Made by a program: the position numbers and the translations under genes. DNA of 64,000 bases, from the IMG/VR virus record IMGVR_UViG_3300008110_000029. The stretch is one strand, 5' to 3'. This DNA comes from a virus (taxonomy: Duplodnaviria; Heunggongvirae; Uroviricota; Caudoviricetes). The notes below the pieces were generated by a model, which did not search any database, had not been told where the DNA came from, and was given only the letters and a program-made list of their open reading frames with translations. This document shows, in pieces, positions 15,367 through 37,403 of the stretch (the stretch's first letter is position 1; each line of letters starts with the position of its first letter).

Positions 15367-15758
15367 TGAATAAAATTACTTTGGTTACTGAGCCAGATGA
15401 TATACTGGTAGATGCTTTTAGAATATTGTGCGTAAATCTAACCGTAGATCAAACACAGTTTCTTTCTGACATCGTAAATGATATGGAATATATAGTTGAC
15501 ACTGTTGTATATGTTTGGAACGATGGAGATGACGAAAAATGGTTATTTGATAAAAAGACAAAAAGTAATCTAATTGTCTTTAATGCAAGTACAGAATGTG
15601 GAGAGATAAATGGATATCTAGCTGCACAACCAAATTCGTTTTATTTTGGTCCTCTCAGAAATTTATCTCTCGTAAATATTAGAGATATATATGATGCAAC
15701 AGATTTTAAAGATACTTTATTAGAATATATCAGGAAATATGAACAAATTTACGAATAA
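15366..15758 (+). CDS. Hypothetical acidic protein (130 aa)
   Basis: ORF only. Confidence 0.4.
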   Translation: MNKITLVTEPDDILVDAFRILCVNLTVDQTQFLSDIVNDMEYIVDTVVYVWNDGDDEKWLFDKKTKSNLIVFNASTECGEINGYLAAQPNSFYFGPLRNLSLVNIRDIYDATDFKDTLLEYIRKYEQIYE

Positions 15759-15978
15759 ACCTTCTGGTAGTGTAGTTACAGTTAAAGATGGCGAAGATAT
15801 TAATCGTGCTCTTAGACGTTTTAAGAAAAAAATAGAAGAATCCGGCACACTTGACACCCTCCGTAAAAAAGAATTTTACGAAAAACCTACTACAGAACGT
15901 AAGCGTAAAAAATCAGCGGCTAAGGCACGTTGGCGCAAACAATTACGTTCACAAGAATTACCACCTAAACTCTATTGA
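15739..15978 (+). CDS. rpsU: Ribosomal protein bS21
   Basis: 79 aa. '[58 protein letters not shown]' follows the bS21 pattern (E. coli '[60 protein letters not shown]'). Confidence 0.88.
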   Translation: [79 protein letters not shown]

Positions 15979-16009
15979 CATCTGAAAGAAAGTAGTTTAT
16001 AATAGTACT

Positions 16010-16591
16010 ATGAACTCAGATATAATGATAGACCTCGAAACCCTTGCCACCACTCCTGATGCTGCAATTTTAAGTATTGGCGCAGTGAAATTTGATCCGT
16101 TTGGGCAAGAATTAAAAGAACCAGCAATGGAAAGTTTTTATCTACGTGTAGATATTGACAGTTGTGATCGGTTAGGATTAGCTACATCACAAGATACTCT
16201 TGAATGGTGGGCAAAACAAAGTCAAGCAGCTCAAGACGAAGCATTTGGAACCGAAGGTAGAGTTGATATTGTTAGTGCTATGAATCAACTTTATAAATTC
16301 TGTTGGGGTGCTAAACGTGTATGGAGTCACGGTGCTGGCTTTGACGTTGTTATTTTAGAAACAGTATTTCGCAAAATGGGAAAAGGTTACCCTTGGAGTT
16401 TCTGGCAAGTAAGAGATACTAGAACAATTTTTGATCTTGGTATCAATCCAGACCGCCCTGAAGTATTAGCTCACCATGCGTTACACGATTCTTATAATCA
16501 AGCAATTGGTGTGCAAAATGTTTTCCGTAGATTGCGAACATCGTCGACATTAGACGGCCAATTGCTTTCTCCATTAAAGGATTCAAGATGA
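16010..16591 (+). CDS. DEDDh 3'-5' exonuclease (DnaQ-like/RNase T-like)
   Basis: '[23 protein letters not shown]' is Exo I motif D-x-E. '[11 protein letters not shown]' is the Exo III H-x4-D motif. Confidence 0.62.
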
Positions 16592-17667
16592 GAATCGAAG
16601 ATGAAATCAAATTAGATTTCAAAGATGTTCTTATTCGTCCTAAGCGCAGTACTTTATCAAGTCGCAAAGAAGTTGACTTAACAAGGACTTACAAATTTAA
16701 ACACAGTCGCGCCGAGTGGACAGGAGTTCCGATTATGGCCAGTAACATGGACGGTGTTGGTACACTAGAAATGGCTCATGCTCTATATCAACACAAAATG
16801 TTCACTTGCCTAGTTAAGAATATCAGTACGGTATACTTTGAAACAACCGTACAAGATATAGGAGGCAATCATTTCGCAGTAAGCACAGGGACTTCCGAAA
16901 AGGACTTTGAAAGATTAAGTAACATACTTAATTCTTATTCCGAAATAAAATTTATCTGTATAGATGTAGCAAATGGATATAGCGAACACTTCGGGGACTA
17001 TGTAGAAGAAGTGCGTGAGGCATTTCCTAATCACACAATTATCGCAGGTAACGTTGTTACCGCAGACATGACACAGGAGTTAATTTTACGTGGAGCAGAT
17101 ATTATCAAAGTGGGCATTGGTCCAGGCAGTGTTTGTACAACTAGGATACAAACTGGCGTCGGTTATCCTCAGCTCAGTGCTATTATTGAGTGTGCTGACG
17201 CTGCTCATGGTCTCGGCGGCCATATTATTGCTGATGGTGGTTGTGTGTGTCCCGGTGACATTGCTAAGGCGTTTGGCGCCGGAGCAGACTTTGTAATGTT
17301 AGGAGGCATGTTAGCCGGTCATGATGAGGGCGGCGGTGAAGTTATTGAAGAAATGCACGAACTTTCAAAACTTCAAAAAGATATGTTTTCAAATGATTAT
17401 GAAATTAAAAAATATGTAGAATTCTATGGAATGAGTTCAAATACTGCTATGAACAAGCATCATGGTGGCATAGCTGAATATCGTTCATCAGAAGGACGTA
17501 CGGTAAGAGTACCGTATAAGGGCCCGGTCCAAAGTACAATTTTGGATATGTTGGGCGGACTGCGTAGTTCTTGCACATATGTAGGTGCTGCAAGTCTTAA
17601 ACAATTATCTAAATGTACTACATTTATTAGGGTCAATATGCAATTTAATGATGTCTTTACGAGATAA
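16588..17667 (+). CDS. guaC: GMP reductase
   Basis: 359 aa, near-colinear with E. coli GuaC: '[26 protein letters not shown]', '[36 protein letters not shown]', '[14 protein letters not shown]', '[12 protein letters not shown]'. Confidence 0.92.
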
Positions 17668-17748
17668 ATAAAAACGCAATTAGCACCCAATGGGCTAATT
17701 GTAACGAGCTCAGTGCTCATTAAATTCTTACTTTTTAAGGAGAAAAAT

Positions 17749-19662
17749 ATGTCAAAAATCATCGGTATCGATTTGGGTACCACAAACTCATGTGTAGCTG
17801 TTATTGAAAACGGCAAATCCAAAGTAATTGAAAACTCAGAAGGCGCAAGAACAACTCCGAGTATTGTTGCTTATACAGACAGCGATATTTTAGTAGGTGC
17901 TTCAGCAAAGCGTCAGGCGGTAACTAATCCCAAAAACACAATTTATGCATCTAAGCGGTTAATTGGACGTAAGTTCAATGAACAGGCTGTTCAGAAGGAC
18001 ATTGACCTAATGCCTTATGAAATTGTCAAGGCAACAAATGGTGATGCTTGGATTCGCGCACAAGGAAAAGAAATGGCACCTCCACAGGTGTCTGCAGAAG
18101 TTCTTCGCAAGATGAAAAAGACTGCAGAGGACTATTTAGGGCATGAAGTTACACAGGCTGTTATTACAGTGCCTGCTTACTTCAATGATAGTCAAAGACA
18201 GGCAACTAAAGATGCCGGTCAAATCGCTGGCTTAGAAGTTCTACGTATTATTAACGAACCTACTGCGGCTGCATTAAGCTACGGTGTTGACAAGACAGAC
18301 AAAGCTGATCGTAAGATTGCGGTGTATGACTTAGGTGGTGGCACATTTGATATCAGTATCATTGAGATTGCCAACGTCGAAGGCGACAAACAAATTGAAG
18401 TATTGTCAACAAACGGCGATACATTCTTAGGCGGTGAAGACTTTGACCAGCGCATTATGGATTATCTGGTTGAGGAATTTAAGAAAGAGCAAGGCATTGA
18501 TCTAACTAAAGATATGTTGGCACTACAACGTCTTAAGGACTCTGCTGAAAAAGCTAAGATTGAATTATCTAATTCTACACAAACTGAAGTTAATCTTCCA
18601 TACATTACTGCCGATGCTAGTGGTCCTAAACATCTAGTGGTAAAAATTACCAAGGCAAAATTGGAACAGTTAGTTGACGATTTAATTCAACGTTCATTAG
18701 AACCTTGTCGTATTGCTATGAAAGATGCCGGAGTTACCGCAGATCAGATCGACGAAGTTATTCTAGTTGGCGGCCAAACTCGCATGCCAAAGGTACAAGA
18801 AGAAGTAGAACGTTTATTTGGAAAAGCGCCACGTAAAGATGTTAACCCAGACGAAGCAGTAGCAGTTGGTGCTGCTATCCAAGGTGCTGTGTTGGGTGGT
18901 GATCGTAAAGATGTCCTATTGTTAGATGTTACTCCATTAACTTTGGGTATTGAAACAGTAGGCGGTGTAATGGCCAAACTGGTTGCTAAGAATACTACTA
19001 TTCCAACTAAGGCAAATCAAATTTTCAGTACAGCTGATGACAATCAACCTGCTGTTACTATTCGTGTGTTCCAAGGAGAACGCGAATTGGCACATCATAA
19101 CAAATTGTTAGGCGAATTTAATCTTGAAGGTATTGATCCAGCACCACGTGGTATGCCTCAAATTGAAGTTACATTTGATATTGATGCTAATGGTATTTTA
19201 AGCGTAAGTGCCAAAGACAAAAATACTGGTAAAGAAAATAAAATTACCATTAAAGCTAATAGCGGCATTACTGAAGATGAAATCAAACGTATGATCGCTG
19301 AAGCAGAACAATATGCAGAAGAAGATAAAAAAGCACGTGAAGTTATTGAAACACGTAATGGTGCATTATCTGAACTGTATACAATTCGCAGAGAATTAGA
19401 AGCAGAAAAAGATCTTGCTACAGAAGAAGAATGGAAAATAATTGAAGATGCACTAGAGGCTGCTGAAAAATTAGTCAATGATAATAGTGACATTGAAGAA
19501 ATTAAGAAAGGTCCTTTCAATGTAGCCGATGCTGCAAAACCTTTGTTTGAAAAAATTAAAGCCAAACGCGAAGCTGCCAAAGCAGAACAATCTGCACCGC
19601 AGCCAACTGATGGTGAAGTGATCGATGCTTCCTTTACAGCAACTGAAGGCAAGGCATCTTAA
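17749..19662 (+). CDS. dnaK: Molecular chaperone DnaK (Hsp70)
   Basis: 638 aa. '[15 protein letters not shown]', '[11 protein letters not shown]', '[11 protein letters not shown]' and the substrate-binding domain are all present. RBS AAGGAG at -8. The start was taken at the internal ATG (17749), not the track's 17713. Confidence 0.95.
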
Positions 19663-19753
19663 GAATACACATATGTGTGTATAATGTTGCGGTACCTAAT
19701 GGGCCGCAACATTGAGCATAAAGCTCATATTCTTACTTTAAAAGGAGATTAAT

Positions 19754-20191
19754 ATGAATAATAATCAGTTAGCACAAATTACAGCTCTTAACAGAGCTCT
19801 TATTGGATTTGACACACTGTTTGATCAAATGGAAAGACGTTTTTCTAATAGTGTATCTAATAACTATCCACCTCACAACATTCTTAAAACTGGTGAAAAT
19901 CAGTATGAGATTCAATTAGCAGTTACTGGATTTGATAAAACAGAAATTTCTGTTACTGTAGAGGACGGAATTCTTATTGTTAAAGGTGAAAGCATGGCTA
20001 CAGATCATGCGCCAGAACAATACATTCATCGCGGTCTTGCTACTCGCGATTTTGTTAAAGAATTTCCTCTAGCAGAACATATTGAAGTTACTGGAGCGGA
20101 AACCAAAAATGGTATGTTAACCATTAAGTTGGTCCGTAATGTTCCAGAGTCTGCGAAACCGAAAGTCATTGACATTGTAGACATTAAGTAA
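19754..20191 (+). CDS. Small heat-shock protein (Hsp20/alpha-crystallin, IbpA-like)
   Basis: 145 aa. 'PPHNILKTGENQYEIQLAVTGFDKTEISVTVEDGILIVKGE' is the alpha-crystallin domain pattern. RBS AAAGGAG. Confidence 0.8.
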   Translation: MNNNQLAQITALNRALIGFDTLFDQMERRFSNSVSNNYPPHNILKTGENQYEIQLAVTGFDKTEISVTVEDGILIVKGESMATDHAPEQYIHRGLATRDFVKEFPLAEHIEVTGAETKNGMLTIKLVRNVPESAKPKVIDIVDIK

Positions 20192-20195
20192 TATA

Positions 20196-20226
20196 ATTAA
20201 GGGGAAGGAAACTTCCCCTTAATTAA
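20196..20226 (+). terminator. Perfect hairpin TTAAGGGGAAG-GAAA-CTTCCCCTTAA after the hsp20 gene (terminator-like, no T-run)
   Basis: 11-bp perfect stem with a GAAA tetraloop. Confidence 0.4.
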
Positions 20227-20240
20227 CCTACAGAGGAAAT

Positions 20241-20549
20241 ATGGCAGACGTAGAAACTAAAATCAAAGAAGTAACAAAGACAGTTGAAACTCAACCACCC
20301 AATCATTGGAAGGTAGTATTCTTAAACGATGATTATACTCCCATGGAATTTGTTGTTGCTCTTTTGGTTACTATTTTTAGGCACAGTGAACAATCTGCCG
20401 AGCAGATCACAATAGAAATACACAACACGGGCAGTGCTGTTGTTGGTTTATACACACACGAAATTGCAGAACAAAAGTCTATTGATGCAACAACCGTTTG
20501 CAGACAACACGGTCATCCTTTACAAATTACAATCGAAGAAGACAAATAA
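20241..20549 (+). CDS. clpS: ATP-dependent Clp protease adaptor ClpS
   Basis: 102 aa. 'WKVVFLNDDYTPMEFVVALLVTIFRHSEQSAEQITIEIHNTGSAVVG' matches the ClpS core. Confidence 0.82.
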   Translation: MADVETKIKEVTKTVETQPPNHWKVVFLNDDYTPMEFVVALLVTIFRHSEQSAEQITIEIHNTGSAVVGLYTHEIAEQKSIDATTVCRQHGHPLQITIEEDK

Positions 20550-20807
20550 ATGACAGCCGACGAGTTTAAGTTCATACGATATATGAACGCTGAAACTAGT
20601 CGGTTTTCTTTTTGGATAATTTTTCACGACCTTAGAAGATATAATTTGGGTAAAAAAGGAAGAAAGAATTTTATAAGCTTCTTTACAGAAATTCTAGGGC
20701 CAGTAGGTGAGCGTTGGCAATATGAAAAAACAATTCATACATTTTGTATAAAATTAGATAAAGAAATAGATGCCACAATGATGATACTGAGATACGGGCC
20801 TAAGTAA
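20550..20807 (+). CDS. Small protein, distal member of the 'LKW' paralog family (see array at 33.1-35.8 kb)
   Basis: C-terminal '...KEIDATMMILRYGPK' parallels '...ENDRDATMFMLRWGY' of ORF 33089..33391. Confidence 0.4.
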   Translation: MTADEFKFIRYMNAETSRFSFWIIFHDLRRYNLGKKGRKNFISFFTEILGPVGERWQYEKTIHTFCIKLDKEIDATMMILRYGPK

Positions 20808-20817
20808 ATAAAAAACT

Positions 20818-21384
20818 ATGAGTTTAAAAGAAATTACCAAAGATCTTCATCACGAAGCAGAAACAACCCAATTTGCTAAGATGTTACTTAGCGGAAAAAT
20901 TACTAAAGAAGATTATGCCAACTACCTTTATCAGTTAGTATTAATTTATAATGCTATAGAGTTAGGTAATCGAGTAGAAGGCAATTTTAAAAATCTTCCT
21001 GGTTTAGAAAGAACACACGCAATCTATCAAGACTTTATTGAGATCGCAGGTGTTGATCACAATTACAAATGGTTACCTGGAACTATAGACTATTACAACT
21101 ATCTCTTAAATTTAGTTCGTGATCCTGCGCATCGTCCTAAAATCAAAGCTCATCTATATTGTCGACATATGGGAGATCTGTATGGTGGTCAAATAATTAA
21201 AAAACAAGTAGCACATATTAGCAAAGGTCGTTTTTATGATTTTAAAGATGCAGATGCATTAAAAATGTCCATACGTGCAGAACTAACTGATGACCTAGGA
21301 GACGAAGCAAGAGTTGCGTTTGAATGGGCCATTAAAATGATGAGAGAATTGTATAATGAGTCAGGTCTGGAACAGTCTAATTGA
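20818..21384 (+). CDS. Heme oxygenase
   Basis: 188 aa. 'LKEITKDLHHEAETTQFAKMLLSGKITKEDYANYLYQLVLIYNAIE' matches the HO N-terminal proximal-His helix region. Confidence 0.72.
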   Translation: MSLKEITKDLHHEAETTQFAKMLLSGKITKEDYANYLYQLVLIYNAIELGNRVEGNFKNLPGLERTHAIYQDFIEIAGVDHNYKWLPGTIDYYNYLLNLVRDPAHRPKIKAHLYCRHMGDLYGGQIIKKQVAHISKGRFYDFKDADALKMSIRAELTDDLGDEARVAFEWAIKMMRELYNESGLEQSN

Positions 21385-22036
21385 AATACAAAAACTGTTA
21401 GAAAAAAGATTTTCAGAGACAGGCATTGAAACTTTTGAGCCCGGAATGGAAAGATTTAATCAACCGGGTTGGGTAAATAGAGTTTGGTGCAGCGATCATT
21501 ATCGCAGAGCTCATGTCGACGTAGTTGACGCCCGATCCTCAAAGGGCCTTTGGATGATGCATTGCTGCATCTTTCCTCACATACACAATCCTGCTCCTAT
21601 TTTTGGATTTGATGTAATTGCAGGAAAAAATAAAATCACAGGTTGTTTTATAGACTACAGCCCAACAGCTGATAAACAGCATCCTATGATCGAATATTTT
21701 GCTGAAGAAGTCAGTAGATACGAATGGATCCGCAAACGTGAACTACCTGAATGGGCGCAACGTATATTCAGTTCACACATGGTGGCCGCTGGCAATGTGC
21801 AAGAAGAATCAGAATTATCTCAAATTAGCGGTCTAGCGAACATTCTAGTAAATCATTATTTAGAAACAGTAGGCGAAACAAATCACAAAGTTGCAGATAC
21901 AACGTTTGAGCAAAATTATTACGCACAGAATCAAAAACAAAATCCGCACACCCCTAGAGTTATGGTTAGTTTGGGGCTTAGTGAAGAAGATGTTAAGCAT
22001 TTTATTCAAGATTGTTTATTTCCAGAAATAAACTAA
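21356..22036 (+). CDS. Ferredoxin-dependent bilin reductase (PcyA/PebS/PcyX family)
   Basis: 226 aa. 'RRAHVDVVDARSS...LWMMHCCIFPHIHNPAPIFGFDVIAGKNKITGCFIDYSPT' matches the FDBR core 'RRAHLDIVDA...HCVIFP...P.FG.D...G..D.SP'. It overlaps the 3' end of the heme oxygenase gene. Confidence 0.75.
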   Translation: MSQVWNSLIEIQKLLEKRFSETGIETFEPGMERFNQPGWVNRVWCSDHYRRAHVDVVDARSSKGLWMMHCCIFPHIHNPAPIFGFDVIAGKNKITGCFIDYSPTADKQHPMIEYFAEEVSRYEWIRKRELPEWAQRIFSSHMVAAGNVQEESELSQISGLANILVNHYLETVGETNHKVADTTFEQNYYAQNQKQNPHTPRVMVSLGLSEEDVKHFIQDCLFPEIN

Positions 22037-27458: not shown

Positions 27459-28268
27459 ATGAAAATTAGATTAGTATCAGATCTCCATTTAGAATTTTCA
27501 GATTGCTTCGATATTAAGAATGATGATAATATCGATGTCTTAATTCTTGGCGGTGACATTATGATCGCCAGTAAAGTTCTAAAACCTCAAAGTGAATACG
27601 GTATTCGTTTTCGTGACTTTCTAAAACGAATGAGCTTTCAGTTTCCTCATGTTATCTACATAATGGGCAATCATGAATTTTATAGTGATGGTCATTGGGT
27701 AGGTAGTGTTGAACAAATGCGCATGGCTTGCGGTGTACATGATAATATCTACATGTTGGAGAGAGATACTAAAATTATCGACGATGTAGTTTTTGTTGGT
27801 GGAACATTATGGACAGACATGAATAAGTACGATCCATTAACTATGCATGCCGTCCGAGACATGATGAACGATTATCGTGCTATTCGTAATGATCAGGCTG
27901 GATATCGAAATCTTAAACCTGCCGACACTGCCGAACGTCATCGTCAAACAGTAGATTATATTAAACATGTTGTTAAAGAACACAAAGATAAACAGTGCGT
28001 AGTAGTTGGACATCATTCTCCAAGTTGGTTAAGTGTGCATGAACAATATAAGAATGATTACATAATGAACGGTGCATATCACAGTGATCTCTCTAATATC
28101 ATGTTAGATAATCCTAATATTAAATTGTGGACGCATGGCCATACACATCATTGCTTTGACTATATGATTGGAGAAACTAGGATAGTTTGTAATCCTAGAG
28201 GTTATCATCAGGCAAGTGGGTGGAGTGAAGACACTAACTGGAACCCTTCATTATGTATAGAAATTTAA
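27459..28268 (+). CDS. Calcineurin-like metallophosphoesterase
   Basis: 'SDLHLEF', 'GGDIMIA', 'GNHEFY' and 'GHTHH' are the canonical metallophosphatase motifs. Confidence 0.72.
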   Translation: MKIRLVSDLHLEFSDCFDIKNDDNIDVLILGGDIMIASKVLKPQSEYGIRFRDFLKRMSFQFPHVIYIMGNHEFYSDGHWVGSVEQMRMACGVHDNIYMLERDTKIIDDVVFVGGTLWTDMNKYDPLTMHAVRDMMNDYRAIRNDQAGYRNLKPADTAERHRQTVDYIKHVVKEHKDKQCVVVGHHSPSWLSVHEQYKNDYIMNGAYHSDLSNIMLDNPNIKLWTHGHTHHCFDYMIGETRIVCNPRGYHQASGWSEDTNWNPSLCIEI

Positions 28269-29062
28269 TCTTATTAATCCTGTTGTTCCCTATTAAGAGT
28301 TGGGCCGAATCCAACTCTTATCTTTATAATATCACCAATGATAAAATTGTCATGGGCGATAGATTAGATGAAGTACGACCAATTGCCAGCATAACAAAAA
28401 TTATGACTGCTATGATTGTATTAGACTACTATAAATCGTTATCTGATAAAATTAAAACTGGCACCGGAATGCTACCTCGTAAAGAGTATACTCTCGAACA
28501 AATACTAACTGCTATGTTGGTACGAAGTGATAATGGCGCTGCAGAAACATTGGCTAGAAATTTTCCCGGAGGTAGGAAGGAGTTTCTAATCCAGATGAAT
28601 CGCAAAGCCAATCAACTTAAAATGTATAATACCAACTTTGATGATCCAACAGGATTGAGTAGAAAAAACGTATCTTCTATTCACGATCTTAGTTTAATGA
28701 TGACAACGGCTCAAAAATATTCTAAAATTAGAGAAATTAGCATTAAGAAACAGGCATTATTTGAAACCAAATATAAAAAGAAAATTAGAACTATTCATTT
28801 GCATAATACTAATACACCAATACTTTTTGAATTTGATACTGTAGTGGTGTCTAAAACAGGGTATACCAACCCAGCTGGATGGTGTGTGGCAATGGTAGTT
28901 GAAAAGTTCAATAACACTTATGTTGTAATTGTCTTGGGTGCTAAAAACAAAGCGCATCGTATTGACAAAGTTAAGGAAATCATGTATAATCATATTGTTG
29001 ATGAAAGAGTTTTTGATAAAGACATAGACTATGATTTCCAAATCCCCCATCCTATTTTATAG
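28253..29062 (+). CDS. Serine-type D-Ala-D-Ala carboxypeptidase (PBP5/6, peptidase S11 family) with signal peptide
   Basis: Signal peptide 'MYRNLILLILLFPIKSWA'. S-x-x-K 'ASITKIMT', S-x-N 'RSDNGAAETLA' and K-T-G 'SKTGYT' are all present. Confidence 0.75.
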   Translation: MYRNLILLILLFPIKSWAESNSYLYNITNDKIVMGDRLDEVRPIASITKIMTAMIVLDYYKSLSDKIKTGTGMLPRKEYTLEQILTAMLVRSDNGAAETLARNFPGGRKEFLIQMNRKANQLKMYNTNFDDPTGLSRKNVSSIHDLSLMMTTAQKYSKIREISIKKQALFETKYKKKIRTIHLHNTNTPILFEFDTVVVSKTGYTNPAGWCVAMVVEKFNNTYVVIVLGAKNKAHRIDKVKEIMYNHIVDERVFDKDIDYDFQIPHPIL

Positions 29063-29505: not shown

Positions 29506-29685
29506 ATGGCACTACCATTATTAATAATTGGATTTGCTTCTTTGTTTGGCAGTGGTTGTACCTTTATGGACTGGCGCAGTCATCGAGAAGAAACATCTAA
29601 AATTGTTTGGACTGTTGGTCTGGCTATTATTGGTATGTATATGGTAGTTGCTGTTATTGGACAGTTAGTAAGGCATTGCTCATGA
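29506..29685 (+). CDS. Small two-TM membrane protein (59 aa; not in the supplied ORF track)
   Basis: ATG at 29506 preceded by CAGGAGA. 'MALPLLIIGFASLFGSGC...VWTVGLAIIGMYMVVAVIG'. Its stop overlaps the next start (ATGA). Confidence 0.3.
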   Translation: MALPLLIIGFASLFGSGCTFMDWRSHREETSKIVWTVGLAIIGMYMVVAVIGQLVRHCS

Positions 29686-30317
29686 GTTTTAATTTAGGTG
29701 ATATTTGGTCATATGAAGATAAAACTAGGAATCTTCCTAGTATTCAAGTAGTACGATATCCAACTATCCATTATCAAGATTGGTTTCCAGTATCTGTAAT
29801 CAATCCTAATTTTGAAAAAGGTCCTTGGATTGCTGGCGGTGCTGGTTTACGTTGGTATCAAGGAATTCCTGTAGGGGAAAGCGACATAGATGTATATTGT
29901 TCTTCTCCCATGCAGGCAGAGCAGTTACAACAGAAAATTTTTGCTTCAATGGCCTGTACAGAAAAATACAAATCAGATAACGCTGTTACATTAGAAGTTT
30001 CAAAAGATGATCAGACATGGACTGTACAAATAATTAAGAAAAACTATTTTACTGATATGCAAAAAGTCATTGATAGTTTTGATCTATCAGTTTGTCAAGT
30101 TGCTACTGATGGAAATACCTACTTGTTAGGCAATCATACAGCCAAGGATATTCGTGAACGCAACTTAAGAATGCGTATGCCTTTACAAGCAGATGCACTC
30201 AAGCGCCTTATCAAATATTGGACCTACGGGTATCGTCCAGTAGACGGATTATTAGAAGCAATTCAACACAATCCAGTAGGTCGTTGGGAATTTAACCCTG
30301 CAGAGGATTATCTATGA
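29682..30317 (+). CDS. Hypothetical protein
   Basis: The start was taken at the ATG overlapping the upstream stop (the track lists 29607). Confidence 0.4.
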   Translation: MSFNLGDIWSYEDKTRNLPSIQVVRYPTIHYQDWFPVSVINPNFEKGPWIAGGAGLRWYQGIPVGESDIDVYCSSPMQAEQLQQKIFASMACTEKYKSDNAVTLEVSKDDQTWTVQIIKKNYFTDMQKVIDSFDLSVCQVATDGNTYLLGNHTAKDIRERNLRMRMPLQADALKRLIKYWTYGYRPVDGLLEAIQHNPVGRWEFNPAEDYL

Positions 30318-30706: not shown

Positions 30707-30918
30707 TGGATATGAATCAAGCAGCAGTATTTTTAGCAGGTAGTGTTTTAACTATGATTGGTTTTATAGTTATAGTTGTGGGATTAGTTATTATTAACAA
30801 TATTCTTCATAGGTATTGGAAACCTGTTAAGATGTGGAAATTTGATGTATATCCTCCGCAGTTCATGCATCAAGAACCTTTAATGGATCAACCTAAAGAA
30901 AAGGAACTTAAGAAATGA
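30706..30918 (+). CDS. Small membrane protein (70 aa)
   Basis: One TM 'AAVFLAGSVLTMIGFIVIVVGLVIINNIL'. Confidence 0.35.
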   Translation: MDMNQAAVFLAGSVLTMIGFIVIVVGLVIINNILHRYWKPVKMWKFDVYPPQFMHQEPLMDQPKEKELKK

Positions 30919-31424
30919 TTACCTTAAAACAGTTCATGGAAACCGTTGACTACCGTATCACTGAAGGTAGTGAGTATATGTGGCAATGCTACGGTCCTAA
31001 TGCTTATAGATTAGATTCATGGTCTGGCGATCAAGACGGGCATTCTGTTAGTATTGTATTCGATACTAAAACTCAAGAAGTCTACGAAGCCAGCGCATAT
31101 GATTATAAAAATCAACGTGCCTATAGATTGATTAATACTGATTATAAGACGGATCACGATGACGAATCTGAGGATCGTGGTGTGTTAGGTAATCAAGCAT
31201 GGGATGATGTTAATTATGTTGATCTAGATGTCGATGAAGACTTTTTAGAAAAAGCACAGGCAATTGTAAATGAGGAAGATTACGACACTCGGGTTCAAGT
31301 TCAAGTAGAATTTACGGATGACGAACTATTTCGTTACATGAAATTTGCACATGATAAAGATATAACATTTAATCAATTAGTTGAGGAAGCTGTAAAATCA
31401 GCAATCAAGGAACACCAAGCATGA
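30915..31424 (+). CDS. Hypothetical acidic protein (169 aa)
   Basis: ORF, ATGA coupling. Confidence 0.4.
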   Translation: MITLKQFMETVDYRITEGSEYMWQCYGPNAYRLDSWSGDQDGHSVSIVFDTKTQEVYEASAYDYKNQRAYRLINTDYKTDHDDESEDRGVLGNQAWDDVNYVDLDVDEDFLEKAQAIVNEEDYDTRVQVQVEFTDDELFRYMKFAHDKDITFNQLVEEAVKSAIKEHQA

Positions 31425-31609
31425 TTAAAGTTGTACTGTCGTTCTTAGTTGTTGCTGTTGTATTTCATTTTGTAATCGAATCTTGGAGATATACTTCAGG
31501 AAAAGAACGTTGGAATAGTATAAAAACCTTGACATACAGTCTAGGTCTTGCTACACTAACTTTCATAGCATTATCGCTATTTGTTTTTTTATTTTAAGGA
31601 TTTACACAC

Positions 31610-32407
31610 ATGAAACGTATCGCAACTCTTGGCCTTATCGCTGCCGCTGTGTTGGCAACTGGCTGTACTCGTATTGAAACCGGTGAGGTTGGTGTACGAG
31701 TTGGTTTTGACAAACAGGTTCAACCTGGTGAACTATTGCCTGGTTCGTTTAATCAGGTATTGATTGGCGACGTGCTTACATTCCCTATCAAGGATGTCAA
31801 CGTCACACTAGAGAACATGACTCCTGTGGCCAAAGATAATAGCACAATGAAAGACTTTGATGCTGTGGTTGTTTACAACATCAACCCACAACAAGTATCA
31901 GAACTGTATGCTACCAAGAACAAGGCTTTCCACGCTGACTTCAAAGGCGACACTTATGTGATGTATAACTACATTGTTCAGAATGCTCGTAATGCTATCT
32001 ACAAAGCCGCACGTAAGTACGAAGCCTTGGACATGGCAGACAATCGTGGCGAAATGGAGAAGTTCATCCAAGACGAGATCGTTCGCAACTTGTCAGAAGA
32101 AAAGTTGGACGGTACTATTATGATTAGTCAAGTGCTGATTCGTAATGTTGTGCCAGCAGACAGTGTGGTTGAATCAGCTAACGCATTAGTTCGTTCAAAG
32201 AACGAGTTGAAGCAGAAGGAAGTTGAAGTTAAGACTGCTGAAGCCGAAAGCCGTCGTATGGCAGCATTGGCTAACAACTCAGGTGCATCAATTGCATTCA
32301 TGCAGGCCCAAGCCATGTTAAATATCTCCGAAGGTATTAAGAACGGTCAAGTGCAGACTATTGTAGTGCCTTCAAACTTTAACGCTTTGATGTTACCCAA
32401 ACAATAA
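31610..32407 (+). CDS. SPFH/band-7 (prohibitin-like) lipoprotein
   Basis: Lipobox 'MKRIATLGLIAAAVLATGCT', then 'IETGEVGVRVGF' beta start and a long coiled-coil region 'ELKQKEVEVKTAEAESRRMAA', typical of SPFH domain proteins. Confidence 0.55.
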   Translation: MKRIATLGLIAAAVLATGCTRIETGEVGVRVGFDKQVQPGELLPGSFNQVLIGDVLTFPIKDVNVTLENMTPVAKDNSTMKDFDAVVVYNINPQQVSELYATKNKAFHADFKGDTYVMYNYIVQNARNAIYKAARKYEALDMADNRGEMEKFIQDEIVRNLSEEKLDGTIMISQVLIRNVVPADSVVESANALVRSKNELKQKEVEVKTAEAESRRMAALANNSGASIAFMQAQAMLNISEGIKNGQVQTIVVPSNFNALMLPKQ

Positions 32408-32575
32408 TGTAGGATTATTTCTTAGAGGTTAATTAGTGATATTAGAAATTATGATGTGGGGTTTTTTCTCCGCCTGGGGGTGGTTTGGAGCCAGTTATAT
32501 TAAAGATCAAATCTGGAAACCAGAAACTGTTGAGCAGGATAAGCAACAGAAACAAGAAAAGAAAGATTAATAATT

Positions 32576-32836
32576 ATGAATTATAATTTCAATATCACTA
32601 TGACAACTGATATATCTTCAACTATTGTAGAGGAAATAATAAAAAAAATAGTAGAAGAACAAACAGGTAAAAAAATTTCCTCTATAGAAGTTAAACTACG
32701 CCGAGTACAAAAAGGCATAGGTCCCAATGAATCAATTGACACTGTGTTTGACGGATATAACATTGTGTTTGTTGAAGAATCCACAAAAGGAAACAAACAA
32801 CCTAATACTGGATTTAAACCTGCTGTTTATCAATGA
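32576..32836 (+). CDS. Hypothetical protein (86 aa)
   Basis: ORF only. Confidence 0.3.
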   Translation: MNYNFNITMTTDISSTIVEEIIKKIVEEQTGKKISSIEVKLRRVQKGIGPNESIDTVFDGYNIVFVEESTKGNKQPNTGFKPAVYQ

Positions 32837-33159
32837 CTTTAACTAATCAAAGACTTATTGAAGAAATAAAAGGAATCCGCCGAGTGGTGATTAACATTTG
32901 CCACGGCGGATTTAGCCTTAGTGATCAAGCAATTGAAAAATATCGAGAGCTCACCGGTATAACTGATGAAAAATTTTGGGATCGAGATATATCAAGAGAC
33001 GATCCCTATCTAATTCAAATAATCAATGAAATGGGCGAAAAAGCCAACGGTTCTTACGCCGAATTAAAAATCGTAGAGATTCCTGCAGATGTTGATTGGA
33101 TTGTTGAGGAATACGATGGAAGAGAATGGATTGCCGAACGACATAGAACTTGGGACTAA
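32833..33159 (+). CDS. Hypothetical protein (108 aa)
   Basis: ORF, ATGA coupling. Confidence 0.35.
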   Translation: MTLTNQRLIEEIKGIRRVVINICHGGFSLSDQAIEKYRELTGITDEKFWDRDISRDDPYLIQIINEMGEKANGSYAELKIVEIPADVDWIVEEYDGREWIAERHRTWD

Positions 33160-33391
33160 ACTTAAACAAGTTTTAGCTACAAGATCTCGAGCTGTCTTTA
33201 GTTATCGTATCAACTTTGACACAATAGGATATGAATCTTTAGATCTCATGAGAAAGTGGTGTGAAGATAATTGCTCTGGACTTTGGCGATTAGAGCATGT
33301 CCACGCACTATATTTTCAATTTGAAAACGACAGAGATGCTACAATGTTTATGCTACGTTGGGGCTACTGTAGAAAAATTTTCCTTACCTAA
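33089..33391 (+). CDS. 'LKW'-family small protein, array member 1
   Basis: 'WCEDNCSGLWRLEHVHALYFQFENDRDATMFMLRWGY...'. Its start is uncertain (it overlaps the upstream ORF). Confidence 0.4.
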   Translation: MLIGLLRNTMEENGLPNDIELGTKLKQVLATRSRAVFSYRINFDTIGYESLDLMRKWCEDNCSGLWRLEHVHALYFQFENDRDATMFMLRWGYCRKIFLT

Positions 33392-33569
33392 TAATTTACA
33401 TGAATGGTTAATTCATGATTATGAAACGAATTTTTTAGGTCCAGGTAAACGATATCCAAAAAATTATTCAGATCAATATAAAAAAAGATATAATTGTCAT
33501 TATGATTGTCATTATTATACATTTGACTCAGAAAAAGATTATATGTTATTTTTGTTAAAATGGTCATGA
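33297..33569 (+). CDS. 'LKW'-family small protein, array member 2
   Basis: C-terminal 'CHYDCHYYTFDSEKDYMLFLLKWS'. The 5' part overlaps member 1 out of frame, so the start is uncertain. Confidence 0.4.
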   Translation: MSTHYIFNLKTTEMLQCLCYVGATVEKFSLPNNLHEWLIHDYETNFLGPGKRYPKNYSDQYKKRYNCHYDCHYYTFDSEKDYMLFLLKWS

Positions 33570-33958
33570 TTTATTCTTGGCAAAAAGAGATATTAGAAAA
33601 AATGACGCAGTACAAAGGTAAAGGTATGACAACAATTACTGGACGCAAGTTAGGCAAGAGTGCCTTTTCTGCTCAGGCTTTTCAACGACTGTGGGAAGAT
33701 CTTCATGCTCGCCCGGTGGAAGATCTTAAGCTCACAGAAGGCACAGTCTACGGTGCTAGATATTATTGTGTAGAACCAGTTGGTGGAGTATGGCGAGAAA
33801 TGGAAGCGTGGTGTGTCGAAACATTTGGTTCAGTTGGGGAACACATGTGGGGTAACGAGAAAGCACCAGACCCTGCACAGCGTTGGTACATGAACAATCG
33901 CAAGTTCTGGTTCCACAATGAAGTAGATAGAATGGTGTTTGTATTAAAATGGCGATAA
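33560..33958 (+). CDS. 'LKW'-family small protein, array member 3
   Basis: '...AWCVETFGSVGEHMWGNEKAPDPAQRWYMNNRKFWFHNEVDRMVFVLKWR'. Its start ATG lies inside the upstream K-W codons (TTAAAATGGTCATGA). Confidence 0.45.
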   Translation: MVMIYSWQKEILEKMTQYKGKGMTTITGRKLGKSAFSAQAFQRLWEDLHARPVEDLKLTEGTVYGARYYCVEPVGGVWREMEAWCVETFGSVGEHMWGNEKAPDPAQRWYMNNRKFWFHNEVDRMVFVLKWR

Positions 33959-34021
33959 AACTTTTAAGACGAAAAGTTATTATAAGACTGGGCCTTTAGC
34001 AGCTATTGATACTGATCTTAA

Positions 34022-34198
34022 AATGCCTGCAGTTCTAGTGGCACAGTTACAAGACTTTCTCTACGACAAAAAATATCATCAATGGACTGTATCCATTGAT
34101 GAAGAAGGTTACCTCTGTGTACAGTCTAGAAAGAATACACCTAGAACTAGATTAGGGTGGGGTATCTTTGAAAAAGATATAGAAAGACATTATGAATA
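34022..34198 (+). CDS. Small ORF (58 aa) within the array spacer, degenerate junction (CTTAAAATGCC)
   Basis: ATG at 34022. The stop overlaps the member-4 start (TATGAATAA). Confidence 0.25.
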
Positions 34199-34455
34199 AT
34201 TTAGAAGAAGAAATAACTCAAGAACTAGCTACACAGATGCAAAGTGAAATGGACTTTCATATTCTTTCTGATATGTTGGTCAAATCCTGCGGATGGAAGA
34301 AAGTCACATTAACCAGATTCTTTAGTCGTAAACATTCTGTGAATATTTTAATGTGGTGCGAAGAAAATATTAAAAATCCTTTTGAACATAGAGGAAGCAC
34401 TTTTGTATTTGAGAATGAAGGTGATGCTGTTAACTTTACACTAAAATGGTTATGA
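34192..34455 (+). CDS. 'LKW'-family small protein, array member 4
   Basis: '...WCEENIKNPFEHRGSTFVFENEGDAVNFTLKWL'. Confidence 0.45.
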   Translation: MNNLEEEITQELATQMQSEMDFHILSDMLVKSCGWKKVTLTRFFSRKHSVNILMWCEENIKNPFEHRGSTFVFENEGDAVNFTLKWL

Positions 34456-34676
34456 AAACTGCTAGAGATTTTCCTTACCAAACAGTTACTGATAGAACCA
34501 ATCATGGAAAAGCTGCAGAATGGTGCAAGGAAAAGTTTGGTCCTAGATGGGAAGCTATAGGATATAGAGAAGGTACATGGTGTACATTTTGGCAAGGTCG
34601 AGGCGTACCGGGAAGCTATGAATGGTTCTTTCTCAACGAACAAGATTATTTGATGTTTACTTTAAAATGGTTATAA
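34446..34676 (+). CDS. 'LKW'-family small protein, array member 5
   Basis: '...WCKEKFGPRWEAIGYREGTWCTFWQGRGVPGSYEWFFLNEQDYLMFTLKWL'. Start ATG inside the upstream 'AAATGGTTATGA'. Confidence 0.45.
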   Translation: MVMKTARDFPYQTVTDRTNHGKAAEWCKEKFGPRWEAIGYREGTWCTFWQGRGVPGSYEWFFLNEQDYLMFTLKWL

Positions 34677-34933
34677 AAACTTCTGTACACCATTGGCGTT
34701 TTGAGGACGGCAAGACAGTGCCTAACCCCAGTAGCCATTTCCCTTTAGGACCTCCTCCTCGTGGTTGGTACTGTTGGGTATATCCCGAAGACGATCATGA
34801 GTTTGAAGAATGGATGGCTAAGATGTGTCCTACGACAGATTGCACACACCGATTTAACGGTGGCGATCCCATGTACACCGTTTTTATTAAAGAAGATAAA
34901 GAAGCGACACTGTTTCAATTAAAATGGATGTAA
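34667..34933 (+). CDS. 'LKW'-family small protein, array member 6
   Basis: 'MVIKTSVHHW...WMAKMCPTTDCTHRFNGGDPMYTVFIKEDKEATLFQLKWM'. Start ATG inside the upstream 'AAATGGTTATAA' (the track lists the 34622 extension). Confidence 0.45.
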   Translation: MVIKTSVHHWRFEDGKTVPNPSSHFPLGPPPRGWYCWVYPEDDHEFEEWMAKMCPTTDCTHRFNGGDPMYTVFIKEDKEATLFQLKWM

Positions 34934-34936
34934 TAC

Positions 34937-35332
34937 ATGGCAAGATGGTATAAGGATATCGACAGAACTTTTCAAATTAATGAATATCTTTCTGATCGAT
35001 ATTCTTCAAATCATAAAGACAAGATTCGTTGGCCGGTAACAAATAAGTATGTTATAATAAACACCCCCGAAGGAGATCGCGTGGAAGAAGTTAAAGAGAT
35101 AATAGTTCATCAATTCTCGATGGGGGATGTTGAAGATCCAGATCTTTACGCTGCTACTCCTCTATGGGAGTGGGAGAAAAGTGAACAAGGACAGTGGGTA
35201 ATGAAAAATGCCGTGGATACCCCAACGTGGTATCGAATGGCTGATACCAGTATATTTGGTTACAAATATCAAATTAGAGCCAAGCTAATGGGTCCGGCAT
35301 TAACAGAATGGTTGTTGAGGTTTGGTGAGTGA
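34937..35332 (+). CDS. Hypothetical protein (131 aa) interrupting the array
   Basis: ORF. It ends '...EWLLRFGE', not a clear family member. Confidence 0.35.
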   Translation: MARWYKDIDRTFQINEYLSDRYSSNHKDKIRWPVTNKYVIINTPEGDRVEEVKEIIVHQFSMGDVEDPDLYAATPLWEWEKSEQGQWVMKNAVDTPTWYRMADTSIFGYKYQIRAKLMGPALTEWLLRFGE

Positions 35333-35589
35333 AAGATAATCCAAAACAATTTATTACTATGGCTCACAAAAAAGTGGGTTCGGTATTATTAGAAGATGAT
35401 AAACTGATGTCTATCTTAAATGGTTATCATATTGTACGATTAGAAGGTGACGACGACTTTAATGAAAAACTCACGTGGTGTATGGAACACTGTCAAAGTA
35501 AATTTCGAGATATAAGAGAATCTAACTGCCGTGCTTGGTATTTTCAAAATGAACAGGACGCCAGTATGTTTGCCATGAAATGGTCTTAA
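35329..35589 (+). CDS. 'LKW'-family small protein, array member 7
   Basis: GTG start. '...WCMEHCQSKFRDIRESNCRAWYFQNEQDASMFAMKWS'. Confidence 0.45.
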   Translation: MKDNPKQFITMAHKKVGSVLLEDDKLMSILNGYHIVRLEGDDDFNEKLTWCMEHCQSKFRDIRESNCRAWYFQNEQDASMFAMKWS

Positions 35590-35811
35590 ATGTTAGTAGT
35601 ATATCTCGATGATTCAAAAATAGTCTACGATAGATCCTTAGAATATTTTCAAACAGCGGCAGATTGGGCCAAAGCTCAATGTCAAAGTTTTGTTGACTAT
35701 CATGTTCAAGATGTTTCAGATGTATCAATGATGTTCGATCACGTGGCAGAATATCGATTTAAAGATTCTAAAGATGTTTTAATGTTTCAATTAAAATGGA
35801 AAACCAATTGA
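35590..35811 (+). CDS. 'LKW'-family small protein, array member 8
   Basis: '...WAKAQCQSFVDYHVQDVSDVSMMFDHVAEYRFKDSKDVLMFQLKWKTN'. Start immediately after the upstream stop (AAATGGTCTTAAATG). Confidence 0.45.
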   Translation: MLVVYLDDSKIVYDRSLEYFQTAADWAKAQCQSFVDYHVQDVSDVSMMFDHVAEYRFKDSKDVLMFQLKWKTN

Positions 35812-35867
35812 CTTTTGAAGTTAATGAGTATATAATTAACTTGTTTAATAATATATAGGTAACTTAA

Positions 35868-36278
35868 ATGAAAATTGGTTTTAGTTTTGGACGCTGTATT
35901 CGTGACATCGTTAACGGTGATGTTGAACTCGAAGATGTTGCATTTATTATTGCAGCAACTTGTATGCATGACGAGAAGCATGTACGTAATGTTATTCTTA
36001 ACTATCTAACAGAACCTAGTTATCTCCTTGGCTACAATGAAAAAGATTGCATGGAAGTAGGTCTTGCACTTTGGAATCAAAACAAAGTTCTACAACCTCG
36101 CAAACAGGGAATACCAAGACATGCCCAACCAGAAAATGCAGTTTGGGTTGATATCTTTCCTACATCTCATTCCGACAGCGAAGCAGTAAAAACTGCTTGG
36201 GATCAATATCGCTTTATGTTACATATGGTTGAAAATGTAGACACTGAAGCTATCGATGTTTTTAAAGAACCTTATTAA
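35868..36278 (+). CDS. Hypothetical protein (136 aa)
   Basis: ORF preceded by an A/T-rich region. Confidence 0.4.
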   Translation: MKIGFSFGRCIRDIVNGDVELEDVAFIIAATCMHDEKHVRNVILNYLTEPSYLLGYNEKDCMEVGLALWNQNKVLQPRKQGIPRHAQPENAVWVDIFPTSHSDSEAVKTAWDQYRFMLHMVENVDTEAIDVFKEPY

Positions 36279-36280
36279 CA

Positions 36281-36553
36281 ATGTTTAGATTATTTTTTAA
36301 TATCAGCAATCCCTGGAGCGATCGTTGGGAGAACATCAAACAGTGGTCTGGAACTACTCCTTTTAAACACAAGTTTTGGGAAGCGCAGATTGATAAAACT
36401 CATGATGTTATAGGTGTTGATATACAATACAGTGTTCGACAAGATCATGCAGGAATATTCCTGTGCCTGGCATTTTTGGGCTATGAAGTAATTTTTAATT
36501 TTTACGATAGCAGGCACTGGGATCATGAAACCAATAATTGGGCAAAAGATTAA
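36281..36553 (+). CDS. Hypothetical protein (90 aa)
   Basis: ORF only. Confidence 0.35.
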   Translation: MFRLFFNISNPWSDRWENIKQWSGTTPFKHKFWEAQIDKTHDVIGVDIQYSVRQDHAGIFLCLAFLGYEVIFNFYDSRHWDHETNNWAKD

Positions 36554-36624
36554 GTGCGCAGTTAATTAAATATGTATGAAATCTAAACTCTAGATAAGTA
36601 CATAGTTAATCAAATGGAGCATTT

Positions 36625-37182
36625 GTGAAAAAAATCGAGGACTTCAATGCCGAAGATCGTATTGATATCGAACTACTCGGAAACAGTATACATTTCTTAG
36701 TGGGAGAAATAAATGAGGACACGATCAAAAGTGCTATAAAATGGATTGTTTACGAAAACCTAGAGTCAAAGGAAAAAACATTAACTTTATACGTTAATTC
36801 AACAGGCGGTGATCTTTATCAAGCATTTGCCTTAATTGATGTAATGCGTAGCAGTAATCACACAATTAGAACTGTTGGTATCGGTGCTGTAATGAGTGCA
36901 GCATTTTTAATTTTTGCCAGCGGTGATCAAGGTGAAAGATACGCAGCTCGTAATACTAGTTTTATGTGTCATCAGTTTTCAGAAAGTATGGATAACAAAT
37001 ATCATGACCTTAAAGCTACTATGCGAGAAAATGATTTATGTAATGAAAAAATGGTACAAATATTAAAAGACGCTACAGGACTTGCTCCTAGCGTAGTCAA
37101 AAAGAAATTACTGCCCGCCAGTGATGTTTATCTATCATCCCAGGAAGTCATAGATCTCAACGTTGCAGATCATCTGTTATAA
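36625..37182 (+). CDS. ClpP-family serine protease (S14)
   Basis: '[21 protein letters not shown]...[18 protein letters not shown]...FMCHQFS' parallels ClpP 'IYINSPGG...TICMGQAASMGAFLL...IHQPLGG' (Ser and His positions conserved). GTG start. Confidence 0.6.
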
Positions 37183-37184
37183 AT

Positions 37185-37403
37185 ATGTCTAAAGAAGATA
37201 TTATTAAGTTCGACGGAACTATTGTAGAAGTTCTGCCCAACACAACTTATCGTGTAAAATTAGCAGATACCCAAACAGTAGTATATGCTTATTCTAGCGG
37301 TAAAATTAGGAAGAACAACATTAAAATTCTGTTAGGTGATACAGTAACTTTGGAGTTTAGCCCCTATGACCTTTCCAAAGGAAGGATTGTTTACCGAAAA
37401 TAA
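37185..37403 (+). CDS. infA: Translation initiation factor IF-1
   Basis: 72 aa. '[63 protein letters not shown]' is near-colinear with E. coli IF-1 ('[62 protein letters not shown]'). Confidence 0.88.

Follow-up and report, generated by a model that had tools for sequence, protein, structure and literature searches.

The DNA examined here, a 64,000-nt stretch of the IMG/VR virus record IMGVR_UViG_3300008110_000029 (hereafter the window, meaning the whole stretch that was analysed), carries intact genes for the ribosomal protein bS21, for the translation initiation factor IF-1 and for a transfer-messenger RNA (tmRNA), and comparison of these genes with their relatives favours, with moderate confidence, the reading that they are functional phage copies which form a maintenance and rescue kit in a jumbo phage related to PA5oct. 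The original prediction had proposed that the phage remodels host initiation and rescue; the neighbourhood of the three genes points to maintaining and rescuing host ribosomes more than to a demonstrated remodelling. What stands out most in the kit is the 28-residue tag encoded by the tmRNA, which is unusually long and was found here only in viral contigs.

Identity and conservation of the bS21, IF-1 and tmRNA genes

bS21 is a protein of the 30S platform, where it lies beside the 3'-terminal anti-Shine-Dalgarno region of 16S rRNA; the place of IF-1 in the 30S initiation complex is the A site. The open reading frame (ORF) for the bS21 homologue (15739..15978, plus strand, 79 amino acids), which starts within the upstream ORF with an overlap of 20 nt, scores 70.2 bits against the Pfam family Ribosomal_S21 (PF01165; cut-off 27) and 66.8 bits against the NCBIfam equivalog model TIGR00030 (cut-off 28.95), and residues 13-73 of its product align with ribosome-bound bS21 (PDB chain 6v39_u, E = 5e-16). 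The protein has an isoelectric point of 10.5, with 24 lysines and arginines among its 79 residues; it is extended at the N-terminus by about 9 residues and has LPPKLY as its C-terminal motif. The IF-1 (infA) homologue (37185..37403, plus strand, 72 amino acids) scores 74.7 bits against the Pfam family eIF-1a/IF-1 (PF01176; cut-off 30.2) and 98.9 bits against the equivalog model TIGR00008 (infA; cut-off 61.15); its residues 1-71 align with E. coli IF-1 in PDB entries 9fco_I (E = 7e-22) and 1ah9, and the S1-like OB domain is covered over its full length. Families for phage S21 and for the IF-1 of the window already exist in PHROGs. The coordinates at which the two homologues had been predicted from the sequence are exact, stop codons included, and in the profile searches that had been proposed as a check both proteins score far above the Pfam and the NCBIfam equivalog cut-offs.

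Relatives of the window's S21 occur on at least 260 contigs in IMG/VR, and the best 80 of these, at 63-84% identity, are the retrieved loci to which all counts of locus conservation refer. S21 is conserved in every one of the 80, all 81 copies are intact, and a median pairwise dN/dS (ratio of nonsynonymous to synonymous substitution rates) of 0.17, with synonymous sites near saturation, marks the gene as being under purifying selection. The N-terminal extension and a clade-specific C-terminal motif, LPxK(L/M)[FY], which is unlike the tails of bacterial homologues, are present in all 56 unique S21 sequences. Relatives of IF-1 are found on 21 viral contigs, where 22 of 22 copies (the window included) are intact and the median dN/dS is 0.08. 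As a separate observation, some relatives carry a tRNA with a CTA anticodon (an amber suppressor, labelled tRNA-Pyl by ARAGORN), which is located directly after S21 in contig L044 (10262-10335) and 1.6-4.8 kb upstream of IF-1 in contigs L093 and L094 (8325-8399) and L095 (5214-5289); recoding of TAG in these relatives was considered and rejected, because homologues in those loci contain no excess of in-frame TAG.

The third gene, which had been predicted near 4.3-4.7 kb, is called by both ARAGORN and Rfam as a complete two-piece (circularly permuted) tmRNA of the betaproteobacterial type (4272..4753, plus strand). ARAGORN reports a permuted tmRNA* at 4278-4753 as the single RNA gene in the window, and the Rfam families RF04321 (tmRNA_permuted; 152.6 bits, gathering threshold 47; 4308-4662, model positions 1-213) and RF01850 (beta_tmRNA; 135.9 bits, gathering threshold 84; 4272-4732, model positions 1-331) are both matched over the full length of the model. 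The permuted order is confirmed by the position of the acceptor piece (4306..4370, plus strand), which comprises the T-arm and the 3' strand of the acceptor stem and ends in an encoded CCA at 4368-4370, on the 5' side of the coding piece (4492..4707, plus strand), which contains the 5' acceptor strand GGGCCUG, helices, the tag reading frame and further helices downstream. The two pieces are separated by an intervening segment of 121 nt (4371..4491, plus strand), visible as a 117-nt insertion relative to the Rfam models and presumably excised during tmRNA processing. When 15 homologues are aligned, compensatory, both-sided changes are seen in 25 of the 44 predicted pairs; these pairs are located in the T-arm, in the acceptor stem and in the stem that closes the intervening segment (alignment columns 94-107/363-375), where double-sided changes are many. 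An intrinsic terminator, a G+C-rich hairpin with T-runs on both strands and hence given without a strand, follows at 4708..4731.

Of the 80 loci, 19 have the tmRNA gene, at a distance of 7-10 kb upstream of S21, and these belong to a sub-lineage that also carries AhpC and a CMD-family protein. No sigma-70 site was found upstream of the tmRNA gene. Some 5-10 nt ahead of the tmRNA, many sister contigs have in common a conserved GTTAAATAAC-like motif (alignment columns 17-28), at the place where the window carries TGAATAAAG (about 4290-4303); a promoter specific to the phage, or a signal for processing, is a possible role for it.

These measures bear directly on the proposal, raised with the original prediction as the outcome that would undo it, that the genes are recently captured host fragments which are decaying and have no function. 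Nothing was found in favour of this proposal, and it is refuted by the intactness of all copies, by the dN/dS values of 0.17 for S21 and 0.08 for IF-1 with synonymous sites near saturation, by the covariation in the tmRNA and by the collinearity of S21 out to PA5oct, so that decay can be set aside as extremely improbable. The nearest 120 S21 relatives lie, moreover, on contigs of at most 295 kb in every case. Since S21 is collinear as far as PA5oct, it is ancestral at least to the split from that phage.

The long tag of the phage tmRNA

The tag reading frame (4576..4662, plus strand; ARAGORN and codon alignment) starts at the resume codon GCA (alanine) and comprises 28 codons, ANDNAFDFTAMSFTGNTVANDSKFALAA, before TAA; its end, GCT CTA GCA GCC TAA, encodes a hydrophobic terminus of the ALAA type followed by the stop. 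Between this terminus and a start of the AN(D/A) type, the tag contains the core T-F-D-F-S-A-M-S-F-T-G-N-T-V. Among the 17 unique tmRNAs of the S21-anchored loci, nine tags called by ARAGORN have in common the core (T/A/S)F(D/E)F-x-A(M/L/I)(S/N)FTGN(T/S)V, and a tenth core-bearing tmRNA, in contig L015, has the motif in a frame other than that of the ARAGORN tag; other tmRNAs of these loci encode short tags such as ANDEQFALAA. Relative to tags of the RF01850 type, the window tag has approximately 16-21 extra codons.

The codons of the core vary synonymously (TTT/TTC, ACT/ACA/ACC, GGT/GGC/GGA, AAC/AAT and GTT/GTA/GTG), and because the core is kept through many such changes, the constraint must act on the peptide, which in turn implies that the tag is translated. 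Searches for the core in larger collections used a degenerate DNA pattern; since the pattern itself selects for part of the motif, the codon sample obtained with it is unbiased in the five upstream codons only. The pattern has at least 118 matches in IMG/VR viral contigs, with 69 of 80 retrieved matches lying inside permuted tmRNAs called by ARAGORN, and it occurs on 93 metagenome contigs, the longest of which is 146 kb. No tmRNA with the core was found across 185,579 species genomes of bacteria and archaea. The two pattern matches in that set were considered as evidence of a bacterial donor or host with the long tag and were rejected, the first being a high-GC coding region of Polaromonas and the second a 7-kb contig of a metagenome-assembled genome without a tmRNA. 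The core peptide strings were not found in the literature searched, and the long tag is regarded, on the basis of these comparisons, as a phage-specific variant of the tmRNA tag.

A further proposal concerning the tag is offered tentatively, as one that may well not hold: the tag would be a virus-specific label, providing a second recognition element on rescued proteins, mostly truncated and derived from the host, beyond a copied host degradation signal. This element would be read by an adaptor, chaperone or protease of the phage's choosing, for which the ClpP-family, ClpS-like, DnaK and HExxH proteins encoded in the window and described below are candidates. If this is true, disposal or recycling directed by the phage would be kept apart from the quality control of the host.

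The completeness of the tmRNA and the constraint on its tag are also informative about the possibility that the products of the three genes act away from the ribosome, with bS21 or IF-1 serving as RNA chaperones or regulators, and the tmRNA sensing the state of the host, timing lysis or being what is left of an integration site. Precedents exist for several parts of this scheme: IF-1 is an RNA binder with the S1/OB fold, bS21 is reported in a non-ribosomal ribonucleoprotein in passages of PMC12054373, a role for tmRNA as a host-state sensor is mentioned in passages of PMC7162821, and ssrA fragments serve as phage attachment sites (PMC9004378). The tmRNA of the window, however, is no fragment, since it has both pieces, an encoded CCA, a tag frame and covarying helices, and there is no integrase nearby; its tag peptide is constrained at the amino-acid level and therefore translated; and S21 and IF-1 keep their ribosome-contacting cores at the equivalog level. 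An action away from the ribosome is accordingly considered distinctly improbable.

Phage origin and the neighbourhood of the three genes

A megablast search with 23 kb of sequence against 50,697 phage records produced no match. Proteins identical to the S21 and IF-1 of the window were found on dozens of metagenome contigs of no more than 1 Mb, and the independently assembled JGI contig Ga0114344_1000088 (137,979 bp) contains the tmRNA, S21 and IF-1 in the same order as the window, which shows that the window is not chimeric; an identical IF-1 is found on a contig of 211,818 bp, with relatives on contigs of 295-353 kb. Nine collinear homologues of PA5oct genes were detected in the window and its upstream flank (tblastn, PA5oct 150-195 kb; E 1.6e-08 to 0), namely gp247 (a virion protein), gp244 (an exonuclease), gp242, the alpha and beta subunits of ribonucleotide reductase (RNR), gp239, S21, Hsp20 and ClpS. 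The RNR genes (17..1695, plus strand; the C-terminal part of alpha, and beta) are synteny anchors to PA5oct gp241 and gp240, and the homologue of gp239 (2406..3434, plus strand; tblastn E = 6e-22), a baseplate hub or tail lysozyme with PHROG matches to endolysin and baseplate hub families, provides a phage marker inside the window, gp239 having been detected in PA5oct virions by mass spectrometry according to the record annotation. Just upstream of the window are a 317-amino-acid protein whose sole cultured relative is a virion structural protein of the Pseudomonas jumbo phage PA5oct, and PHROG matches to tail-spike and exonuclease families. When the PA5oct TerL, sheath, tube, UvsX, primase and helicase were searched by tblastn against the window and the related loci retrieved, nothing relevant was found. 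Because identities to PA5oct are low (29-47%), the relationship is a distant one and the window is not placed in the family of that phage; we conclude from these comparisons that the window is part of an uncultured phage of the myovirus type, probably a jumbo phage, which is a distant relative of PA5oct and the Arenbergviridae, with no family assignment being made.

The opposite reading, that the window belongs to a cellular or plasmid-like replicon in which S21, IF-1 and tmRNA are native genes misread as viral, draws on two points: capsid, portal and terminase genes were not found when approximately 40 large or conserved ORFs of the window, the upstream contig (L116/L118) and related loci were compared with PHROG and Pfam, and large plasmid-like elements with similar translation genes are described in passages of PMC7162821. 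It is nevertheless very improbable given the collinearity with virion-protein and replication genes of PA5oct, the baseplate-hub/lysozyme homologue within the window and the tail-spike-like gene just upstream of it. The composition of the window (G+C 35.3%, 95% coding, with about 98 genes, mostly short and mostly orphan, in 64 kb), which includes one ribosomal protein and neither rRNA nor tRNA genes, and the length of every contig with the exact proteins, which is below 1 Mb, also speak against a cellular origin.

The host is probably a proteobacterium that reads Shine-Dalgarno (SD) sequences, an assignment derived from the enrichment of SD-like motifs, from perfect sigma-70 promoters on the coding strand and from the betaproteobacterial type of the tmRNA. 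AGGA is located upstream of 28 of the 98 genes, compared to about 5 expected, and SD-like motifs are enriched approximately 5-fold. The perfect consensus TTGACA-17-TATAAT occurs three times on the coding strand at gene boundaries (15975-16003, 20169-20197 and 28962-28990), compared to about 0.05 occurrences expected from base composition; the first of these, at 15975..16003 on the plus strand, spans the S21 stop codon and precedes the exoribonuclease gene. A near-consensus promoter, TTGACT-17-TATAAT (35808..35836, plus strand), lies in the gap before the run of genes orf136, orf90, ClpP and IF-1. The three perfect sites suggest that host RNA polymerase, in unmodified form, transcribes large parts of the region.

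None of the three genes lies within a structural module of the window. S21 is followed directly on its 3' side by an Rv2179c-like 3'-5' exoribonuclease (16010..16591; Pfam PF16473, 134.4 bits), which adjoins S21 in 75 of the 80 loci, and then, likewise on the plus strand, by GMP reductase (16588..17667; NCBIfam NF003470, 555 bits, cut-off 397), DnaK (17713..19662; Pfam HSP70, 838 bits; NCBIfam DnaK equivalog, 969 bits, cut-off 648), the small heat-shock protein HSP20 (19754..20191; a collinear homologue of PA5oct gp225) and a ClpS-like adaptor (20241..20549; Pfam ClpS; a collinear homologue of PA5oct gp224, tblastn E = 2e-18). The context formed by S21, the exoribonuclease, DnaK, HSP20 and ClpS, with GMP reductase as a variable member, is kept in 57-75 of the 80 loci, and a more extended core order (Hydrolase_2, orf439, S21, exoribonuclease, DnaK, HSP20, ClpS, haem oxygenase and bilin reductase) in 52-76. 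The leaders of DnaK and HSP20 (17700-17748 and 19713-19753) share the sequence GCTCAT(T)A..TTCTTACTTT(T/A)AAAGGAG, with a hairpin before the motif, and this may be a common regulatory element.

IF-1 starts 2 nt past the stop of a gene for a ClpP-family serine peptidase (36625..37182, plus strand; Pfam CLP_protease, 103.8 bits), which is a candidate for either a Clp subunit or a head-maturation protease. The Ser-His-Asp triad of this protein is intact, its motifs VMSAA, CHQF and ASDVY aligning with the triad positions of ClpP 3q7h_A, and no homology at E = 1e-4 was detected between it and the PA5oct region that holds the head protease of that phage. The last 38 nt of IF-1 are overlapped by orf222 (37366..38034, plus strand), which encodes a conserved protein of 222 amino acids in which an HExxH motif is invariant and the predicted fold weakly resembles that of zincins. 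The order of the ClpP-family gene, IF-1 and orf222 is the same as in the window in 4 contigs (L093-L096).

The gene context, which formed no part of the original prediction and which consists of chaperones, proteases, an exoribonuclease and nucleotide salvage, points to upkeep of the ribosome and proteome as much as to control of initiation. The proposed course of events is as follows. Infection would turn off host expression, and host mRNAs would be degraded, with the participation of the phage 3'-5' exoribonuclease encoded beside S21, while nucleotides would be salvaged by the GMP reductase encoded near S21 and by the ribonucleotide reductase encoded at the start of the window. By topping up bS21 and IF-1, the phage would keep 30S subunits competent for initiation on phage mRNAs, and the phage tmRNA, acting together with host SmpB, would release ribosomes stalled on truncated messages and tag the unfinished proteins. 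Tagged or damaged proteins might then pass to DnaK, HSP20, the ClpS-like adaptor, the ClpP-family peptidase and the HExxH protein. Expression of the phage copies and incorporation of phage bS21 into host ribosomes would be required for this scheme, and a precedent for incorporation is cited in a passage of PMC9723584, according to which the bS21 of phage HTVC008M enters E. coli 70S ribosomes.

Several findings weigh against this interpretation, in addition to the result for capsid, portal and terminase given above. Both histidines and Tyr44 of E. coli IF-1, residues important to the function of that protein, are changed in the phage IF-1 according to the alignment. The SmpB Pfam family was matched by no gene of the window or of about 30 kb of flanking sequence, the part of the genome covered by the search, and the function of the tmRNA therefore depends on a compatible host SmpB, which is assumed. 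The ClpS-like protein scores under the NCBIfam cut-offs, and the ClpP-family protein fails at the equivalog level (best NCBIfam score 87.9 compared to a cut-off of 249; TIGR00493, 70.4 compared to 308.6), exceeds the threshold of the Pfam domain alone and has the head maturation protease family phrog_94 as its best PHROG. If the ClpP-like protein is a head-maturation protease, the proposed link to proteolysis would be weakened.

A different use of the same proteins, and the one that corresponds to the remodelling of the original prediction, would be a selective takeover, in which phage bS21 and IF-1 displace their host counterparts and produce specialised ribosomes that favour phage leaders. 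The N-terminal extension and the clade-specific C-terminal tail present in all 56 unique S21 sequences are consistent with such a role, which has been proposed in passages of PMC7162821 (Al-Shayeb 2020) and in PMC9723584 (Chen 2022), and parts of PMC9578407 describe bS21 paralogues that alter translation in a bacterial pathogen. On the other hand, the check for special leader features that had been proposed with the original prediction turned up ordinary SD-like motifs on phage genes and no distinguishing leader feature, the cores of S21 and IF-1 are close to those of proteobacterial proteins, and both genes lie behind sigma-70-type promoters in non-structural blocks, whereas the bS21 of Chen 2022 is found among late structural genes. 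The computations gave no support to a selective reprogramming toward phage mRNAs, and a takeover of this kind is considered rather unlikely; the maintenance and rescue kit is the reading that we retain.

Several gene groups outside this neighbourhood were observed as well. Haem oxygenase and a ferredoxin-dependent bilin reductase, AhpC and a CMD-family protein, PstS and a phosphate-selective porin O/P are encoded at 20818-22036 and 6295-9772; these are auxiliary genes of a kind better known from cyanophages, present in a phage of proteobacterial appearance, and 52-56 of the 80 related loci retain the haem oxygenase together with the bilin reductase. The segment 38979-64000, mostly on the minus strand and continuing past the window end in contig L114, contains at least 7 radical SAM genes, a few of which include a B12-binding or SPASM domain, together with two Asp/Arg hydroxylase-like genes, a 2-oxoglutarate-Fe(II) oxygenase, a methyltransferase, an aminotransferase and an S-adenosylmethionine (AdoMet)-decarboxylase-like gene, and this cluster looks like a pathway carried on the phage for peptide or natural-product modification or for hypermodification. 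In the near-identical contigs L007 and L008, the annotation of those contigs alone places Pfam Gad2 (PF26128), which we take to be a phage anti-Gabija protein, and a Peptidase_S11/beta-lactamase-like protein at positions that match 29607-30317 and 28253-29062 of the window.

Known phage translation kits and the place of this lineage

A translation kit of this type is already known from large phages, and the novelty that had been attributed to the combination of bS21, IF-1 and tmRNA was overstated, comparable kits having been published (PMC7162821; PMC9004378, with the S21 annotation of Melnitz; PMC11242549). The closest likeness by lineage is to PA5oct and its relatives (Arenbergviridae, Wroclawvirus), with which the window shares the collinear block of virion protein, exonuclease, RNR alpha and beta, baseplate hub/lysozyme, S21, Hsp20 and ClpS. 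The S21 of PA5oct is 47% identical to that of the window over 47 residues, and it has different flanks, with ClpX directly upstream and QueD downstream, whereas S21 in the window is followed by the exoribonuclease, GMP reductase and DnaK. PA5oct is jumbo-sized, and the phage of the window is probably so as well, given relatives on contigs of 278-356 kb and the identical IF-1 on a contig of 211,818 bp. PA5oct is absent from the IF-1 and tmRNA screens of the phage collection, and the PA5oct paper contains nothing on its S21.

Among aquatic myophages, an annotated S21 is present in the Methylophilales phage Melnitz and in the pelagimyophages HTVC008M and Mosig. A two-piece tmRNA is described for Melnitz and a tmRNA also for Mosig (PMC9004378), and two-piece tmRNAs are common in aquatic phages. 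These three phages differ from that of the window in having genomes of about 141-147 kb with T4-like replication and late-transcription genes (PMC9004378), and the Melnitz tmRNA is of the alphaproteobacterial type with a glutamine riboswitch. The three are absent from the IF-1 screen, and the window S21 used as a query does not match their S21 proteins at E = 1e-3, the sequences being too divergent. The betaproteobacterial two-piece tmRNA of RF01850 has the same permuted architecture as the tmRNA of the window, and the short tags of sister contigs (ANDEQFALAA) resemble the consensus of that family, but RF01850 is without the extra conserved core of the window tag.

In the passages of Al-Shayeb 2020 (PMC7162821) available to us, huge phages are reported to encode IF1, IF3, S21 with N-terminal extensions, tmRNA and SmpB, and an interception of host translation is proposed; the lineage, gene order and tag found in the window are not described in those passages. 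The cultured Sinorhizobium jumbo phage AP-J-162 (PMC11242549) likewise has S21, an initiation factor, tmRNA, Clp proteins and Hsp20, together with DnaJ, but its factor is IF-3 rather than IF-1, it carries L7/L12 and 66 tRNA genes in a genome of 471 kb, and its lineage is unrelated. The freshwater Bacteroidetes "bS21 phages" of Chen et al. 2022 (PMC9723584) are similarly large and uncultured, with a conserved bS21 for which substitution into host ribosomes has been proposed. In those phages, however, bS21 is located on the reverse strand in a block of terminase, portal, protease and capsid genes and the hosts do not use SD sequences, whereas in the window bS21 lies in a block of chaperone and RNA-decay genes and SD-like motifs are enriched.

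Three S21 queries and one IF-1 query against the phage collection brought up no genuine phage record that has both proteins, in a screen that is not exhaustive, the S21 of the Atu_ph07/AP-J-162 group having gone undetected in it. The records in which the two did overlap were rejected as apparent bacterial contamination: Acinetobacter phage MD-2021a, Staphylococcus SA 1306 Kay, and Listeria and Enterococcus sets. S21, IF-1 and DnaK are present at bacterial levels of identity in CAKLQF02/CAKLQH02 (Acinetobacter phage MD-2021a), in OR8449xx-OR8503xx (Staphylococcus, Listeria and Enterococcus), in AGRM01000002 and in AFYI01000001, and these records look like bacterial contigs filed as phage, which inflate counts of phages with translation genes.

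A well-populated and widely sampled lineage of large uncultured phages thus joins the known carriers of translation genes. In this lineage bS21 has passed down by vertical descent ever since PA5oct-like phages split off, and a sub-lineage has gained the two-piece tmRNA, with IF-1, which was not detected in PA5oct, present in some members. The gene order argues for a broader kit, comprising RNA decay, nucleotide salvage, chaperones and proteases, that would keep a hijacked cell translating, rather than for an isolated initiation switch, and the long tag offers a concrete and cheap route to the question of what phage-encoded tmRNAs are for.

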